Positions 1-14,590 of a DNA stretch of 64,000 nucleotides are shown one piece after another (the stretch's first letter is position 1; every line of letters begins with the position of its first letter). The notes under the pieces were generated by a model. That model was not told the origin of the DNA. It did not search any database and saw nothing but the letters and a program-made list of their open reading frames with translations. This DNA is from Planctomycetota bacterium (lineage in GTDB: Bacteria > Planctomycetota > SZUA-567 > H5-PLA8), in contig BTVV01000019.1 of NCBI GenBank assembly GCA_045863855.1, forward strand, positions 1 through 64,000, given 5' to 3'. The position numbers and the translations under genes are program-made.

Positions 1-1
1 C

Positions 2-406
2 GGAGGCTGGTGCCCGTTCTGCACGCGGCATTTGGCGGCGCTGCAGAAGATCGAGCCGCAACTGGCCGAACAGGGCTTGAAGCTGATCGCGATCACGCCG
101 GACGATGTATCGAAGCTCGCGCCGACGGCCGAGAAACACGGCGTGTCGTTTACGCTCCTGAGCGATCCACAGAACGCGGCGGCGAAGGCGTACAAGCTCG
201 CGTTCCGTATGGATGAAGGGACGATCGCGAAGTATCGCGAATACAAACTGAACCTGGATGCGCAGGACTGGACGCTTCCGGTGCCGGCGGTGTACGTGGT
301 CGGGCGCGACGGGAAGATTCTGTTCGCGCACGCGAACCCGGACTACAAGGCCCGGCTGGCGCCGGAGGACGTGGTGAAGGCGGCATCGGCGGCGGCGAAA
401 CCGTAA
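2..406 (+). CDS. AhpC/TSA peroxiredoxin-like protein, 5'-truncated by window edge
   Basis: Frame from nt 2 reads GGWCPFCTRHLAALQ (CxxC). Later LLSDP and PVPAVYVVGRDGKILFAHANPDYKAR are typical of PRX-like thioredoxin-fold proteins. Confidence 0.9.
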   Translation, partial: GGWCPFCTRHLAALQKIEPQLAEQGLKLIAITPDDVSKLAPTAEKHGVSFTLLSDPQNAAAKAYKLAFRMDEGTIAKYREYKLNLDAQDWTLPVPAVYVVGRDGKILFAHANPDYKARLAPEDVVKAASAAAKP

Positions 407-6990: not shown

Positions 6991-8133
6991 ATGGCCGACC
7001 CCCTTTCGCATAGCCGCTACTGGAAGCTTCCGACGCAATCGGATCAGCCGCTGTATCAGCAGATCCGCGAATTGATTCTGCGTCACTTGGAGGCCGGGCG
7101 CGCCAAGCCGGGCGATCTGCTGCCGTCGTACCCGTGGCTTTCGAAGACGCTGGGCGTCGCGGACAAGACGGTGCGGCAGGCGTATGCGGAGTTGGAACGC
7201 GCGGGGGTGCTGGAGATTCGGCGCGGCAAGGGGACATTCGTCGCGCACCGCGGGACGGAAACGGGCGCGGACTTGGCCAAGACGGGTGTTATAGGCATCC
7301 TGCCTCCGCCCCTCCCCGTGGACCTCTCGGACGAGACCTTTTTCTGGCGCGTCATGCGCGGGATGCAGGAGGCGGCGTTCGCGGAGCACCTGGACACGCT
7401 GGTGCTGGCCCGAGCGGGCGATCTGCGCAACCCGGGGTCGGCCGAACGGCTGGCCGACCGGCGGCGCATGGACGGCCTGGCGCTGCTGGGGCAGGCGGCC
7501 GAGGACTTCCTGAAACGGCTGCACGCGCTGCACTTCCCGGCGGTGCTGGTGGACGCGCATTTCGAGCAGGCTCCGGTGGACTGCGTGGTGCTGGACAACG
7601 CGGGCGCGGGGCGGGATCTGACCTACCGGCTGATCGGGCTGGGGCACCGCAAAATCGGCTTTCTGGGCATTCCGCGCGGGCAGAGCAGCAAAGAGCGCGA
7701 GGCGGGCTACCGGCACGCGATGGGCGCGGCGGGGTTGCCGGTGTCGCCGGACTGGGTTGCGCGCGCGGACGTGGACCTGGGCGAGTCGGGGCAAGCGGCG
7801 GCCGATGCGCTGCTGGACCGGGGCCTGACGGCCGTGGTGGCCTTCAACGGCGGGCTGGCTCAGGGTGTCGCGGAGGTAGCGGCCAAGCGCGGGCTGCGCG
7901 TGCCGCGGGATTTGTCGATCGTGGCGACCGCGGCTTCGGGGCTGTGGATGCTTCCCGGCGGCATCCCGCTGGAGCATCTGGCGTTCGATCCGCAGGAATT
8001 GGGCACGCGCGCGGTGAAACTCTTGGCCGAACGGATCGCGGGTTCGGACGAACTGCCCCGCAAATCGGTGGTGCCGGCGCGGCCGGTGGCGGGCGGCAGC
8101 CTTGCGCCGCCGGGCACGACGGGTTCCCGGTAA
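6991..8133 (+). CDS. GntR-HTH plus LacI-type sugar-binding domain regulator (AraR-like architecture)
   Basis: PLYQQIRE...PGDLLPS...TVRQAY...RRGKGTFV, followed by a periplasmic-binding-fold domain (GHRKIGFL, RVPRDLSIV). Confidence 0.92.
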   Translation: MADPLSHSRYWKLPTQSDQPLYQQIRELILRHLEAGRAKPGDLLPSYPWLSKTLGVADKTVRQAYAELERAGVLEIRRGKGTFVAHRGTETGADLAKTGVIGILPPPLPVDLSDETFFWRVMRGMQEAAFAEHLDTLVLARAGDLRNPGSAERLADRRRMDGLALLGQAAEDFLKRLHALHFPAVLVDAHFEQAPVDCVVLDNAGAGRDLTYRLIGLGHRKIGFLGIPRGQSSKEREAGYRHAMGAAGLPVSPDWVARADVDLGESGQAAADALLDRGLTAVVAFNGGLAQGVAEVAAKRGLRVPRDLSIVATAASGLWMLPGGIPLEHLAFDPQELGTRAVKLLAERIAGSDELPRKSVVPARPVAGGSLAPPGTTGSR

Positions 8134-8206
8134 GTCGCATTCGTTCAACGGGCATGCGAAGCAGGGCATGGGCGGCGTCACGCTCGCATGTATAGGAGAA
8201 TCGAAG

Positions 8207-9340
8207 ATGTCGACCGGATATGCGGTGTGGGTGGCGGTGCTGGCGGGAAGCATGGCGCTGGGCGTGTACGGCTCGGAAGCGCCCGAAGCCCCGAAGCGAT
8301 TCGTGTACGGCTGGTTCCCGAAGAACATGAAGGATTGGAGCACGCAGGCGCTGGACTGGCCGGCGATCACGCATCTTTGTTTCCGTTCGGTGGTGGTGCA
8401 GCCGGACGGGACGATCAAGATCGGCGGCGCGTGCAGTCCGGAGCAGATCCGTGCGCTGCGCAAGGAATCCAAGGAGCACGGCGTCAAACTGTGCGTGCTG
8501 GTGTGGGGCACGAACAAGGCGAACAGCGATGCGTATCTGGCGCGGCATACGGGCGTCTTCGCGGAGCAGATCGCGGCCTTCGTGAAAGAGTACGAATTGG
8601 ACGGCGTGAATTTAGACGACGAGACCTGGCACGAAAAGAATTCGGTGACAGGAGAAAGCAACCGCGAAGCGGTGACGGCGCTTTTCAAGCAGACGCGGGA
8701 GCAATTGGACAAGATCCGGCCGGGCCTGCATCTCTCGTACGCGTCGCCTCCCGTGATCAGCGCGGAAGACAAATTCGGACAAGCCTGGATGGACTACCGG
8801 GCCATCGCGGCGCAGATCGACCACTTCACGATCATGAGCTACTGCATGACGCCGCCGACGATCGGCTGGACGGGGAGCGCTCAGGCGGTGCGCGGGGGCG
8901 GTAAGGTAGGCGAGCATCCGCGCGACTACGCGACGCTGATGGAGGATTACTTAAAGGCGACCGGCGGCGCCAAGGAGAAGCTGATGCTGGGGATCGACTT
9001 GGGTCGCGGCGGGACGGAATGGACGGCCGCGGGGCCGGGCCGGGGGGCGAGCATCGTAGGCAAACCAAGGGCGCTCTCGGCGGCCGAGGCGCGCGCGAAC
9101 GCCGAGAAGCATGGCCGGAAGTTCGATCCGGAGCAGCAGGCGCCATACTACGAATATCGCGATGGCGAGCACTGGATTCAAGGCTGGTACGAAGACGAGG
9201 AATCGTTCGCGGCAAAGTTGAAGCTCGCACGCGACCTGCAATTACCGGGCGTCTGTCTGTGGGTACTCGACGGCGTGGCGGAGCCGGAGAGCACGTGGAA
9301 GGGACTAAAGCATTATCTAACGCCCATGGCCGCGAAATAG
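8207..9340 (+). CDS. Secreted glycoside hydrolase family 18-like protein
   Basis: RBS AGGAGA; signal peptide; LDGVNLDDE (DxxDxDxE variant), IMSY, WYEDEESFAAKLKLA...GVCLW. Confidence 0.85.
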   Translation: MSTGYAVWVAVLAGSMALGVYGSEAPEAPKRFVYGWFPKNMKDWSTQALDWPAITHLCFRSVVVQPDGTIKIGGACSPEQIRALRKESKEHGVKLCVLVWGTNKANSDAYLARHTGVFAEQIAAFVKEYELDGVNLDDETWHEKNSVTGESNREAVTALFKQTREQLDKIRPGLHLSYASPPVISAEDKFGQAWMDYRAIAAQIDHFTIMSYCMTPPTIGWTGSAQAVRGGGKVGEHPRDYATLMEDYLKATGGAKEKLMLGIDLGRGGTEWTAAGPGRGASIVGKPRALSAAEARANAEKHGRKFDPEQQAPYYEYRDGEHWIQGWYEDEESFAAKLKLARDLQLPGVCLWVLDGVAEPESTWKGLKHYLTPMAAK

Positions 9341-10993: not shown

Positions 10994-11177
10994 GGTTCGT
11001 TCTGGTTTCGAGAAATAAAAAAGGGAGAGCGCGGAGCCGCCGCGTGCGGGGCTCGGATCAGGGCGGCGTACAGCCGGCGGCGCAAAGCATGCGGGCGCTA
11101 TCCATAACCTTCTTATAAAATGCGGGCGTGGAACTGGCAACGCCGAGAATGAGCGGATGCCGCGCGGAGATACGAAG

Positions 11178-11909
11178 ATGACGGTCTACGCCATGGCGGG
11201 CGCGGCGCTGGGGTTTCTGGGCTGGGCGGCCTACCTGCCGGTGCTGCGCGTGCCTGCGTGGCGCAAGTCGATGTGGCCGGTCTGGAGCCTGACGCTATTG
11301 GGCGCCGCGCTGGGCGGCGGCGCGTGGCTGGCGGCGAGCGAACGGAGCGCGGCGCTGCATCTCGCCGCCGCGGCGGCGTTGGGCGAATGCGCGCTGTGGG
11401 CGCTGCTGTTTTTCACTTCGATGCGCGTACCCGCTCGAAGCGGACGGCCCGCGGCCGGACAACCGTTTCCGCCGCTGGCGGTGCTTTCGGAGCACGGCGA
11501 GACGCTGCATACCGAAGCGTGGCGCGGGCGCGGGCCGCTGCTGCTCGTCTTTTTCCGCGGCTTCTGGTGACCGTCGTGCGTTTTGGAGCTCCGAGGTCTC
11601 GGAGCCGTCGCGCAGGAACTGGAACGCCAGAGCGGACAACTCTGGTCGATCGCGTTGCACACGCCGGACGAGTTACGCGCGGGGCGCGCTTCGTATCCGG
11701 AGATTCCCGGCGTGCTCGGGACCGTGGAAGACGTAAAGGCGCTCGAAGCGCTTCACCTGCTGCATCGTTCGGCCTTCAAGACGATGGCCGATGCGTCGAA
11801 CATTCTGATCGATCACGACGGCATCGTGCGTTGGACGTACTACAGCGCGCGGAATACGGACCGCGCGACGCCGGAGGAGGTTCTCAGGGCCGTACGCGGT
11901 AAATCCTAA
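11178..11909 (+). CDS. Membrane-anchored peroxiredoxin-like (AhpC/TSA) selenoprotein; TGA 11568-11570 read as Sec
   Basis: ORFs 11157-11570 and 11583-11909 are in frame and read LLVFFRGFW-[TGA]-PSCVLEL, i.e. UxxC at the WCPxC position; SECIS-like hairpin follows; three N-terminal hydrophobic helices. Confidence 0.88.
11588..11605 (+). promoter_or_regulatory. Bacterial SECIS-like hairpin
   Basis: GCTCCGA-GGTC-TCGGAGC perfect 7-bp stem; loop starts 24 nt after the TGA; AGGTCT apex as in the E. coli fdhF SECIS. Confidence 0.8.
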
Positions 11910-11928
11910 GCCAATCCGTAGCGCATCC

Positions 11929-13581
11929 TTATTTAGCTTGAATCAGGGCGATGATTTCCTCGCGGGCGCGGTCCCAGGCGTCTTCTTCGTAGCTCCACAT
12001 GGGCTTCTTGGGATCGTAGGCTTCGGGCGCCCAGGTTCGGCGGCCCATGGCGGTATACACTTTATCGACTATCGCCTGCACCTTGGCGCGGCCAGCCTTG
12101 GCTTCGGCGAGCTTGAGCAGCTCCCATTCCTCTAGCCCTTCGCGGAGGAGCTTCAAGCGCCGGGAGACGACGGGCATTTTAAGATCCTTTAGCGCGGCAA
12201 ATGCGGGGGCACCCGGCATGCTGAGGTCGCCGGGATAAATCAACTGCCCGTCGCCAGGTGGAAACTTGGGGTGCGATTTCCATCCGTTTACGTACATCAA
12301 ATCCCAATAGAGGTGCCCATATGCTTTCTCGTACCACCACGCCCAACCCATGACTCGGGGCTCCCAGGCCGTCTTGACGGTCTGGATGTCGAAGGTGAAG
12401 TAGGGCCAGCCCTGCGCGTTGCTGACGTAGAACCAGAGTTCCTTGCCCTCGGGGCGAGCGCGGTCCCATTCTTCTCGTCCGCGGGGAAGCTTATTCTGCG
12501 CGTACCAGGGGCCGTACACTTTCAGCGCTCGGGAATAGTGCGTAAGCACTTCCTCCAGCACGGATCCGTCGCGGTTGAGGGTGCAGAGAAGCTTTCCTTT
12601 CCATTCGGGAACTTCGCGCAAAACAATCTTCGCCGTCTCCAGGGCGCCCTGTATGGCGCTCTCGTCGGGCTCGTCTTTCAGGTAGACGAAGCTTTTTTCA
12701 AAGAGATTTTTCTCCTTCAAATGAGCGGCGATGCGCTTGAGCTGATCGGCCAATTCCTTTTCCCGTTCGGGCGTGGGCTTCACGGCGTCGGGAATGTAGA
12801 CGCTCACCCACCCTTTCCCATCCGGGTTGAAGCGGTCGAGAAACTCGAGTCCGAAATCGGCTCGTCCGGCCAGCGCCAGGTAGTGGTACGACGTCGCCTG
12901 GATGCGGTGGCGCTGCATTTCGCGCGCATAGGCATCGATGTTCGCTTTGACGTGCGGATGCGCGCGCAAATTGTAGAGCGAAGGAATGGTGGAATCGACC
13001 GGGATCGCGGCATCGAGCACGGTGAGGGCGATGGGGACGGCGACGAGGGTCTTGTCTCCTTCGCGCAATTCGACGCGCCCTGAATAGGCGCCGGGCTTCG
13101 TATTGGCCGGAATGTACATATCGAGCCAGAAGGCGATGGTCTTCTGCGGTTCCGGGCGAACGGCGTTGGCCACGTTCGTCCCGTCCGCGAGTTTCAGGGG
13201 AATCAACGCGTCGGGAAAGGCGCCGAGCTTCCGGACACGATTCGGATCCTTCGCTTCGTCCACCTGCGTTCCGTGATCCACCACGATTTCGGCGGCCCGG
13301 TATAACGTCAGGTGCTGCTTCGCCAGTTCAGTTCCGTCCGGCCCTTTTAGCGCGGTCCATTCGATGCTTACATCGGCTCCGGGGACGGCGCCGACCCTCA
13401 ACGCGAGCTGCGCGGTGACGAACTCGCCGCGCACGCCGCTTCGAATAATGCGCTCTTCGGAGCCCTTGACGCGTTCGGGGAGGATCATCTCGCCCGAGGA
13501 TTCGGGCCAGAAGGAAACTTCCGCGCGCACCGAAAGCGCGGCCAAGGCGGCTACGAGGGCCGCCAGCAGGAACCTGGTCAT
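11929..13581 (-). CDS. Secreted DUF4091 / GH123-like glycoside hydrolase
   Basis: Signal peptide MTRFLLAALVAALAALSVRA; FWLDMYIPANTKPGAYSG; LKDEP; GDGQLIYPG...SRRLKLLREGLEEWE C-terminal signature. Confidence 0.8.
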   Translation of the reverse strand: MTRFLLAALVAALAALSVRAEVSFWPESSGEMILPERVKGSEERIIRSGVRGEFVTAQLALRVGAVPGADVSIEWTALKGPDGTELAKQHLTLYRAAEIVVDHGTQVDEAKDPNRVRKLGAFPDALIPLKLADGTNVANAVRPEPQKTIAFWLDMYIPANTKPGAYSGRVELREGDKTLVAVPIALTVLDAAIPVDSTIPSLYNLRAHPHVKANIDAYAREMQRHRIQATSYHYLALAGRADFGLEFLDRFNPDGKGWVSVYIPDAVKPTPEREKELADQLKRIAAHLKEKNLFEKSFVYLKDEPDESAIQGALETAKIVLREVPEWKGKLLCTLNRDGSVLEEVLTHYSRALKVYGPWYAQNKLPRGREEWDRARPEGKELWFYVSNAQGWPYFTFDIQTVKTAWEPRVMGWAWWYEKAYGHLYWDLMYVNGWKSHPKFPPGDGQLIYPGDLSMPGAPAFAALKDLKMPVVSRRLKLLREGLEEWELLKLAEAKAGRAKVQAIVDKVYTAMGRRTWAPEAYDPKKPMWSYEEDAWDRAREEIIALIQAK

Positions 13582-13603
13582 CGCGTATCTCCGTTGGGGC
13601 GCT

Positions 13604-14590
13604 TTACCACTGCCCGTGCAGCGCGGCTTTGTATTCGTCGCGAATCTTTTCGATCGCGGCAACGACGTCGGGGGTCAGGACGAGATCGGCGGCGGCCAGG
13701 TTATCCGCGAGCTGCGCGGCGTTGCTCACACCAAGAATCGCGGCGTTCACCGCGGGCCGCTGGATGACCCACGCGAGCGCAAGCCGGCCGAGGGGAATTT
13801 CCACTCGTTTGGAAAGTTCGGCGAGCTTCTCGACGGCCGCGACGCGTTCGGGCTTGAGGAGGCGGTCTTTCCAGCTCGGATGATCCTTCACATGAACGTC
13901 GAGCCGACTTCCGGCCGGGATGCCGTTGGCGTACTTTCCGGTCAGCATGCCGCCGCAGAGGGGGCTGTAGACGACAAGCCCATAGCCGAATTCCTGGCCC
14001 AGCGAGGCGAGCCCCACGTACTTGCCGTGATCTTCAACGAGCCCCGGCTGGAGCATGCTGTATTCGGGCTGGTGCGAGACGGGGTATTCGACCTTCAGCT
14101 CGTCGCAAGCTTTGAGCATTTTCAGGGTAAAAGTGGAGTTAAAATTCGAGAGCCCCCAGTACAGAATTTTGCCCTGCTTGAGCAGGCGGTCGATGGTGGC
14201 GGCGATCTCTTCCAACGGCGTGACGCCGTCGTAGCCGTGGAGCTGGTACAGGTCGATGAACTCCACGCCCAAGCGCTTCAGGCTGGCGTCGCACGCATGC
14301 ACCATATGCTTGCGGCTCAGTCCGCGGCGATTGGGACCTTGCGCGCCGTAGCCCCAGCGGCATTTCGTCGCGAGAACCACCTCGTCGCGGGGCAGTTCGC
14401 GCAGACGCTTGCCGAGCAGCGATTCGACTTCGCCCTTTTCGCCGTAGGAGTCGGCGGTGTCTATGAAGTTGATCCCCGCATCGAAGGCTTGCCGAAGCAA
14501 AGTTGCGTCCGCGACCTTGTGTTCGAGCATGGTTCCGTATGCGAATGCGGAAACTTGCATGCCACTGCGGCCCAATTTCCGGAATTGCAT
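13604..14590 (-). CDS. Aldo/keto reductase
   Basis: RKLGRSG, GINFIDTADSYG, SLKRLG...IDLYQLH, GLSN, YSPLCGGMLTGKY. Confidence 0.95.
   Translation of the reverse strand: MQFRKLGRSGMQVSAFAYGTMLEHKVADATLLRQAFDAGINFIDTADSYGEKGEVESLLGKRLRELPRDEVVLATKCRWGYGAQGPNRRGLSRKHMVHACDASLKRLGVEFIDLYQLHGYDGVTPLEEIAATIDRLLKQGKILYWGLSNFNSTFTLKMLKACDELKVEYPVSHQPEYSMLQPGLVEDHGKYVGLASLGQEFGYGLVVYSPLCGGMLTGKYANGIPAGSRLDVHVKDHPSWKDRLLKPERVAAVEKLAELSKRVEIPLGRLALAWVIQRPAVNAAILGVSNAAQLADNLAAADLVLTPDVVAAIEKIRDEYKAALHGQW

Follow-up and report, generated by a model that had tools for sequence, protein, structure and literature searches.

Peroxiredoxin-like selenoproteins with a UxxC redox motif are an established kind, and the recoding on which they depend is standard. 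Among the 119 prokaryotic selenoprotein families listed in PMC13188914, Table 1 gives the Prx-like (PF00578) and Redoxin (PF08534) UxxC selenoproteins as 'predicted with high confidence', and hundreds of the 'Prx-like 1/3' type are reported from ocean samples, several of them fusions and none described as membrane-spanning in the accessible portion of PMC2398784. The gene described here shares with these its Pfam domains above cut-off, its UxxC motif, its Cys homologues and a canonical bSECIS, but it adds a conserved three-helix N-terminal membrane part, a form named neither in Table 1 of PMC13188914 nor in the accessible passages on fusions. What is new is this membrane domain, its breadth of occurrence and the absence of a family model. 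A second relation is PRX_like2 (cd02970), which we take to be defined by RGxW[C/U]xxC on a Prx fold that lacks the Prx triad; the same motif and fold in our protein also recall the SelL-related family NF040769, which is its best NCBIfam match (37.7 bits against a cut-off of 120) and that of most of its homologues (32-79 bits in 22 of them, best 79.3). The selenoproteins of cd02970 are UxxS, however, according to the accessible text of PMC13188914, whereas ours is UxxC and has three transmembrane (TM) helices.

Two further groups resemble the protein in part. The peroxiredoxins (BCP/PrxQ, AhpE, Prx6) provide the closest solved fold, with AhpE 5id2 as the best match (Z 21.0, rmsd 1.9 over 151 residues), but our protein has RGFWUPSC in place of PxxxTxxC (TxxU in the Sec form), Pro or Ala at the Arg column, and a membrane anchor. 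The ResA/TlpA/CcmG proteins likewise combine a CxxC-type site with a membrane anchor, and ResA is the second-best PDB sequence match (E 1.8e-13); unlike them, our protein has three helices rather than one, a Sec nucleophile and, in its clade, a domain predicted to face the cytoplasm, and it stays below the NCBIfam cut-offs (no hit in the protein itself, and at most 65.7 bits in homologues against 170 for ResA). A literature search, with most subscription papers outside its reach, returned no description of the three-helix form and no paper on selenoproteins in Planctomycetota. BSepDB, for which the accessible text gives 57,630 entries and 64,762 genomes (PMC13326102), may hold members under a generic name such as 'Prx-like'.

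The gene lies in a 64,000-nt stretch of a contig from a Planctomycetota bacterium (positions 1 to 64,000 of BTVV01000019.1, hereafter the window). Its frame, read from ATG 11178, contains a single in-frame TGA and is otherwise open to TAA 11907-11909, and the TGA falls within F-F-R-G-F-W-U131-P-S-C134 (W-U-x-x-C); both the position of the codon and the 243-aa frame with Sec131 are as the original prediction had placed them. The elements of this reading are as follows.

11166..11169, + strand: GGAG ribosome-binding-like site, 8 nt 5' of ATG 11178, from the sequence
11178..11909, + strand: coding sequence, 243 aa provided that UGA is decoded as Sec
11568..11570, + strand: in-frame TGA, predicted Sec131 and first position of UxxC, from the sequence and the homologue alignment
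11577..11579, + strand: Cys134, predicted resolving thiol, from the alignment
11588..11605, + strand: predicted SECIS, a 7-bp stem with GGUC tetraloop 24 nt after UGA, lying over codons E-L-R-G-L-G-A

In orthologues the U or C stands at residue 129-139 counted from the matching Met, and most have GGAG upstream. Standard gene calling splits the frame into an upstream ORF of 130 or 137 aa, the longer one starting at the upstream ATG 11157, and a downstream ORF of 108 aa. The original prediction had blamed the ORF caller for this split, and the error proves to be real and recurrent: 8 representatives in the protein library, 130-133 aa long and one of them the fragment of the window gene, terminate exactly at FFRGFW (the ends being seen at protein level), and separate C-terminal pieces are present as well. 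A close cluster member (90% cluster) is annotated 'hypothetical protein', and a direct protein search recovered one relative because the Sec forms are split in the database. The correction concerns a gene that databases carry as two parts, a 130-aa membrane stub and a C-terminal orphan, and a phylum in which selA was found in 289 of 401 sampled genomes.

The gene stands alone in the window, with a divergent prfC on one side and a convergent GH123-like gene on the other. Comparison of 1.5-3 kb flanks at 41 loci revealed no conserved neighbor and no recurrence of the prfC adjacency, and the larger neighbor clusters, judged from representatives, are antisense shadows or close kin. Neither a sigma-70-like promoter nor a terminator better than chance turned up at the gene. 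Two glycoside hydrolase genes near the locus, one GH18 (8102-9340, + strand) and one GH123-like (11929-13662, - strand), are not conserved beside orthologues.

Could the TGA simply be a stop? A nonsense mutation, a sequencing error, a boundary between two genes or a genome-wide reassignment of UGA are all scarcely credible here. The two separate halves given by gene callers would suit a true stop, as would a downstream hairpin of ordinary stability and the existence of one TGA carrier, G278, without detected selA or selB, but TGA recurs at the same active-site column in 30 homologues from many families and alternates there only with TGC, and the downstream half is conserved together with an RNA constraint specific to the TGA forms. 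A sequencing error is countered by contigs of two other studies, which are identical over 11050-11913 and 11050-11867, TGA included. Two of the four runs compared thus span the TGA; X5 has no coverage there, and a run labelled as possible RNA, probably DNA in fact, leaves the gene body uncovered. Nor is UGA generally reassigned, since TGA ends 364 of 1003 long ORFs in the source genome and is therefore an ordinary stop there.

The machinery for selenocysteine, for which the original prediction had proposed a search, is complete in the source genome: selA (534 bits), selB (336 bits), selD (360 bits) and tRNA-Sec (70.7 bits) all exceed their family cut-offs, and selD itself carries an in-frame TGA at CAG*AAK. 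The genes selA, selD and selC (tRNA-Sec) are clustered on a single contig; selB is on a different, short one.

G000:C231:1177-3793, - strand: selA-selD-selC cluster
G000:C192:806-2710, + strand: selB

A second tRNA with a TCA anticodon reported by ARAGORN (G000:C125:17730-17828, - strand) is likely false, as it is 78% GC, lacks a CCA end and has no match to RF01852. All six TGA-bearing genomes of the window's family have selA, selB and tRNA-Sec. Of the five genomes with a TGC form, G005, G011 and G014 have the complete trio, a partial selA at the end of a contig is all that G016 (79% complete) has, and none of the three was found in G012 (91% complete). The more distant carrier genomes have selA in 32 of 35 cases and selB in 34 of 35, and neither was found in G278 (90% complete). 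Because selA is so common in the phylum and neither gene was found in G278, co-occurrence with the Sec machinery lends only modest support. The TGA form of G278 (L086, on G278:C69) is followed by an 8-bp hairpin with a GAC loop. Six genome bins (G114, G416, G009, G010, G006 and G003) hold two copies of selA and/or selB, or two tRNA-Sec matches, which reflect either duplication or contamination.

How widespread is the protein, and how often does it use Cys instead? Full-length copies number 11 among 61 related genomes, all within the window's family, with TGA in 6 and TGC in 5 at the same column. A profile of these 11 sequences, searched against 401 genomes of the phylum with a cut-off of E 1e-28 or better, gave 42 full-length matches in 41 genomes, 38 of them with TGA. 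Loci were fetched for 30 of the 42 matches, 24 of these from outside the window's family, and 22 of the 24 could be parsed, with TGA at W-U-x-x-C, the exceptions being L088 and L094, the latter without a stop. Taking family, phylum and metagenome loci together, 37 homologues parsed, with TGA in 30 and TGC in 7 at the column where the original prediction had anticipated Cys. DNA-pattern scans that back-translate 'WC' are biased towards Cys, as in genomes they recovered TGC forms alone and in metagenomes 5 full-length loci. A quick tree of the 37 homologues nests each of the 7 Cys forms among Sec forms within the window's clade (support 100), and at least 4 label changes between Sec and Cys are needed; this suggests that Sec was lost to Cys repeatedly, on a tree that is midpoint-rooted and leaves out the library's many full-length Cys homologues. 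The genus shared by G004 and G012 offers a natural control for such a change: G004 has TGA and the hairpin, G012 has TGC and no hairpin, and the peptide at the hairpin site has drifted in G012 from ELRGLG to QLPNLT.

The hairpin itself was found as originally described, GCTCCGA (11588-11594), loop GGTC (11595-11598) and TCGGAGC (11599-11605), with the loop 24 nt downstream, and it forms the apex of the minimum free energy (MFE) and centroid folds, with -12.2 kcal/mol for 11580-11615. In the accessible text of PMC13188914, bSECIS elements are held to a loop of 3-9 nt, a stem of 4-16 bp, a spacing of 16-37 nt, and a G among the first two loop positions with an MFE at or below -7.5; the 4-nt GGUC loop, 7-bp stem, spacing of 24 and energy of -12.2 kcal/mol lie within all four of these constraints. 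The apex AGGUCU is identical to that of the E. coli fdhF SECIS, as the original prediction had stated and the annotated record confirms, but the fdhF apex starts at nt 21 (counting the U of UGA as 1) and ours at nt 27, so that the former is 6 nt closer, and the fdhF fold has a bulged U whereas ours is a perfect 7-bp stem without a bulge. The folding stability of the hairpin is ordinary (z -0.5 to -2.1), and a loose bSECIS rule is passed by 12,996 of 57,916 arbitrary TGAs (22%) of this 64% GC genome, and we therefore discarded stability as evidence. A tighter form, requiring a GGTN loop and at least 7 Watson-Crick pairs at 14-37 nt from TGA, was seen behind 4 of 75,057 TGAs, and two of these share one hairpin, which lies behind a gene for an HMA-domain protein with MTUGGC. 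By itself, then, the hairpin is weak evidence of Sec decoding, and the comparative evidence is decisive.

This comparative evidence is of two kinds. First, the codons under the hairpin are held fixed. In four TGA orthologues with ~36-39% identity to the window protein, the codons for L-R-G-L-G are identical in 30 of 30 pairwise comparisons, as against 167 of 399 for other shared 4-6-fold residues of the same orthologues, and in five Cys orthologues only 10 of 27 are identical at these codons, as against 294 of 696 elsewhere. The fixed five include rare codons (CGA 0.047, GGT 0.09 and GGA 0.109 in genome usage), and genome usage gives a joint expectation of 3e-5. In this series of orthologues, an RNA signal inside the coding sequence fixes five codons, and does so only while UGA is kept. 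Second, the stem is conserved as a structure, again as the original prediction had required of relatives. With two near-copies, L056 and L058, excluded, a G-apex stem of at least 6 bp follows the codon in 28 of 29 TGA forms and in 0 of 6 TGC forms. The stems occur in two registers, a tetraloop at 24 nt (17 sequences) and a triloop at 21 nt (11 sequences). In the former, 83% of cells are paired against 75% in shuffled alignments, with compensatory changes from G-C to A-U in 6 and from C-G to G-C in 2; in the latter, 96% are paired against 83%, with three pairs altered on both sides. None of 500 shuffles scored as high for covariation in either register, and slid control positions are 27-50% paired. 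The 28 sequences behind these figures were sorted into sets by eye after the hairpins had been seen, with the near-copies L058 and L078 left out, and the covarying changes come from few, non-independent lineages, so that covariation is to be read as support and not as a probability. Three metagenome Sec forms (L057, L058 and L059) have another hairpin, of 6 bp with an AGTTA loop 16 nt from TGA, and retain the ELRG peptide despite it. Taken with the alignments, these patterns make it nearly certain, in our view, that the UGA is decoded as selenocysteine.

What the selenocysteine does depends on the domain that carries it. Pfam places AhpC-TSA (PF00578, 36.7 bits against a cut-off of 26) and Redoxin (PF08534, 29.7 against 26.6) in the protein, and all NCBIfam models stay below their cut-offs, both for the window protein and for 25 homologues and fragments. 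An AlphaFold model built with 11 sequences (pLDDT 89, pTM 0.83) comprises three N-terminal helices and a thioredoxin-like domain, in which U131-P-S-C134 follows strand E121-125 and opens the active-site helix H132-139.

11442..11906, + strand: peroxiredoxin/thioredoxin-fold domain, residues 89-243, from Pfam and structure comparison
11793..11795, + strand: Ala206; at this column most homologues (33 of 37) have Pro, and peroxiredoxins their catalytic Arg
11862..11864, + strand: Arg229, invariant in 37 of 37 and aligned with the Arg of the Prx6 GR motif

The structural matches span residues 87-243 only. They are closer for peroxiredoxins (Z 18-21) than for ResA/TlpA (Z 12.6-16.7, ResA itself at 16.7), with BCP and Prx6 among the Foldseek matches, Tpx also among the best structural matches, and human prostamide/prostaglandin F synthase at Z 15.1. 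The catalytic residues tell otherwise: the description 'peroxiredoxin-like' in the original prediction holds for the fold and fails for membership. In the alignment to BCP and Prx6, both the PxxxT/SxxC(U) motif and the catalytic Arg of a later beta strand are absent: the Pro column of PxxxTxxC holds R127, the Thr column holds U131, the column of the peroxidatic Cys holds C134, and at that of the catalytic Arg 33 of the 37 homologues have Pro, whereas 4, the window protein included, have Ala. Cys134 is invariant in alignment A1 and in the wider set is part of the search motif. We take the Pro column at residue 206 to be the thioredoxin-type cis-Pro site, and the layout of CxxC plus Pro would then be that of disulfide oxidoreductases. 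Because the Pro, Thr and catalytic Arg of peroxiredoxins are all replaced, the alignments indicate a protein with a peroxiredoxin fold that is not a peroxiredoxin and is likely a selenol/disulfide oxidoreductase; judging by fold and residues, we consider this role the better bet over a peroxidase.

A membrane-tethered peroxidase is nonetheless an alternative to be weighed, albeit an unlikely one. In such an enzyme the selenol would reduce lipid or small hydroperoxides at the bilayer, C134 would resolve, and the invariant R127 and R229 would replace the missing Prx Arg. A selenol can reduce peroxides without the Prx triad, a membrane anchor would suit lipid substrates, and R229, invariant and aligned to the Prx6 motif, could serve as such an Arg; the best structural matches (AhpE, Tpx and BCP) and the overall closeness of the fold to peroxiredoxins point the same way, as does the lack of the presumed cis-Pro in the window protein, although that residue is present in 33 of 37 homologues. 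The position of the selenium speaks against it: here Sec takes the place of the Thr and the peroxidatic position is occupied by Cys, whereas the known Sec peroxiredoxins are PxxxTxxU according to the accessible text of PMC13188914. CxxC forms, moreover, replace the Sec form in several genomes.

The membrane part comprises the three N-terminal TM helices that the original prediction had proposed, all present in the AlphaFold model (H2-24, H33-52 and H58-82).

11181..11249, + strand: predicted membrane helix 1, residues 2-24, from AlphaFold and hydropathy
11274..11333, + strand: predicted membrane helix 2, residues 33-52, from AlphaFold, preceded by a loop with R24, R29 and K30
11349..11423, + strand: predicted membrane helix 3, residues 58-82, from AlphaFold and hydropathy, followed by R83, R87 and R90

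At a Kyte-Doolittle cut-off of 1.5, two of the three helices of the window protein pass and helix 2 falls below, and in each of 9 more distant orthologues all three lie above it; R29 is retained in 29 of 37 homologues. Membrane anchoring seems very probable. The architecture had been called a less usual one for this selenoprotein family, which is fair with respect to published selenoprotein lists but not in sequence space, where it recurs in 41 of 401 genomes and where 58 of 120 motif-bearing library proteins, retrieved with a query that contained the TM part, have at least 2 predicted TM helices. No Pfam or NCBIfam model matches the membrane part above cut-off. Cysteine is not conserved in the membrane part, where no column has it in more than 3 of 37 homologues, and for this reason we rejected a Cys-based electron conduit of the DsbD/CcdA/VKOR kind; the helices are more likely an anchor or a partner-binding element than electron carriers.

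On which side of the membrane does the redox domain lie? We applied the positive-inside rule (PMC3962082, accessible portion), scoring topology with a home-made count of K and R charges that is subject to uncertain protein starts in several rows. The window protein has K/R counts of 0 at the N-terminus, 3 in loop 1, 1 in loop 2 and 3 after helix 3, for a score of +5 in favor of the C-terminus inside. Scores in its clade average +3.6; of the 10 members, 7 are above zero, 1 is at zero and 2 are below it. Database fragments score above zero in 6 of 7 cases. For the 25 distant Sec homologues the mean is -1.1, with 19 below zero, 5 above and 1 at zero, and 56 full-length Cys proteins of the library divide into 28 positive, 25 negative and 3 zero. 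With loops fixed by the alignment, 8 of 10 clade members have more K/R in loop 1 than in loop 2, as against 2 of 25 distant ones, but with the N-terminus omitted the net bias of the distant group is only -0.84 to +0.04, so that its outside prediction is weak. The charge bias suggests that the domain faces the cytoplasm in the window protein, as we think probable, and, more weakly, the opposite orientation in distant homologues.

A periplasmic domain, with a ResA/TlpA-like role and electrons fed by DsbD/CcdA, strikes us as quite improbable for the window protein. It would accord with the general tendency of membrane-anchored CxxC proteins of this fold to be periplasmic, with the rank of ResA among the PDB sequence matches, and with the C-outside bias in 19 of 25 distant homologues, whose membrane part is homologous. 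The distribution of charges in the window protein, with three K/R in loop 1 and three after helix 3 against none at the N-terminus and one in loop 2, and the excess of loop 1 over loop 2 in most of its clade, run counter to it. That the two membrane parts are homologous is borne out by hhalign (probability 97%, E 3e-11) and by a profile search: a profile built on the distant membrane part puts the window gene at the top of the 61,115 frames in its genome (E 3.7e-5, the next at 0.024).

Homologues of opposite orientation are known among transporter subunits, according to the accessible portion of PMC3962082. We tentatively raise the possibility, doubtful as it is, of a phylum-wide three-helix selenoprotein subfamily, lacking a family model, in which the whole protein was flipped in the membrane during evolution. 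The UxxC site would then be cytoplasmic in the window's family and periplasmic in most other planctomycetes, and the SECIS would have slid one codon between registers; on the same reading Sec looks ancestral and lost to Cys several times, with the hairpin decaying each time. If the difference in orientation is true, homologous redox enzymes would work on opposite sides of the membrane, and if it arose by a flip, a redox site would have moved between compartments, leaving a natural series on the trade-off among compartment, Sec versus Cys, and SECIS spacing.

Returning to the window protein, we propose, with a probability of roughly 0.62 for the reading as a whole, that UGA is decoded as Sec via the GGUC hairpin and that the product is a three-helix protein whose cytoplasm-facing domain is a selenol/disulfide oxidoreductase acting at U131-x-x-C134. 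By analogy with established bacterial Sec decoding, SelB with GTP and Sec-tRNA would bind the G-rich apex of the hairpin and insert Sec at the UGA, when the three helices would already be out of the ribosome; were selenium absent, translation would end there and yield a 130-aa membrane stub. From its place at the head of the active-site helix, U131 would attack a disulfide or an oxidized thiol near the membrane; C134 would resolve the U131 adduct as a selenenylsulfide, to be re-reduced by the cytoplasmic thioredoxin system. The domain might in this way reduce or rearrange disulfides at the inner membrane face, while the helices would anchor it or bind a partner with no electron transport across the membrane. 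The prediction that this redox protein, very probably membrane-anchored, is a selenoprotein is well supported, with Sec machinery, Cys in orthologues, a conserved covarying SECIS and three N-terminal helices all found in line with the selenoprotein interpretation, and the recoding mechanism that it would use is the standard one. It adds a membrane-anchored form, captured by no NCBIfam model, to the Prx-like UxxC selenoproteins.

Other redox and predicted selenoprotein genes accompany it in the genome. A second AhpC/TSA-type protein, with the Cys motif GGWCPFC, is cut by the contig start at window positions 1-406 (+ strand). A genome-wide scan gave 5 selenoprotein candidates and is non-exhaustive, having missed the window gene and selD. 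A predicted HMA/MerP-like selenoprotein with MTUGGC (L099:366-707, + strand, equivalent to G000:C3 around 15006) opens with a hydrophobic leader; its TGA is followed at 20 nt by an 8-bp hairpin with a GGTC loop, and it reaches no NCBIfam cut-off. A predicted MsrA selenoprotein with GUFW (L098:330-1196, - strand, equivalent to G000:C24 around 45219) scores 116.4 bits with TIGR00401, above its cut-off; its N-terminus carries a hydrophobic segment, and the gene has a hairpin of 8 bp at 20 nt.
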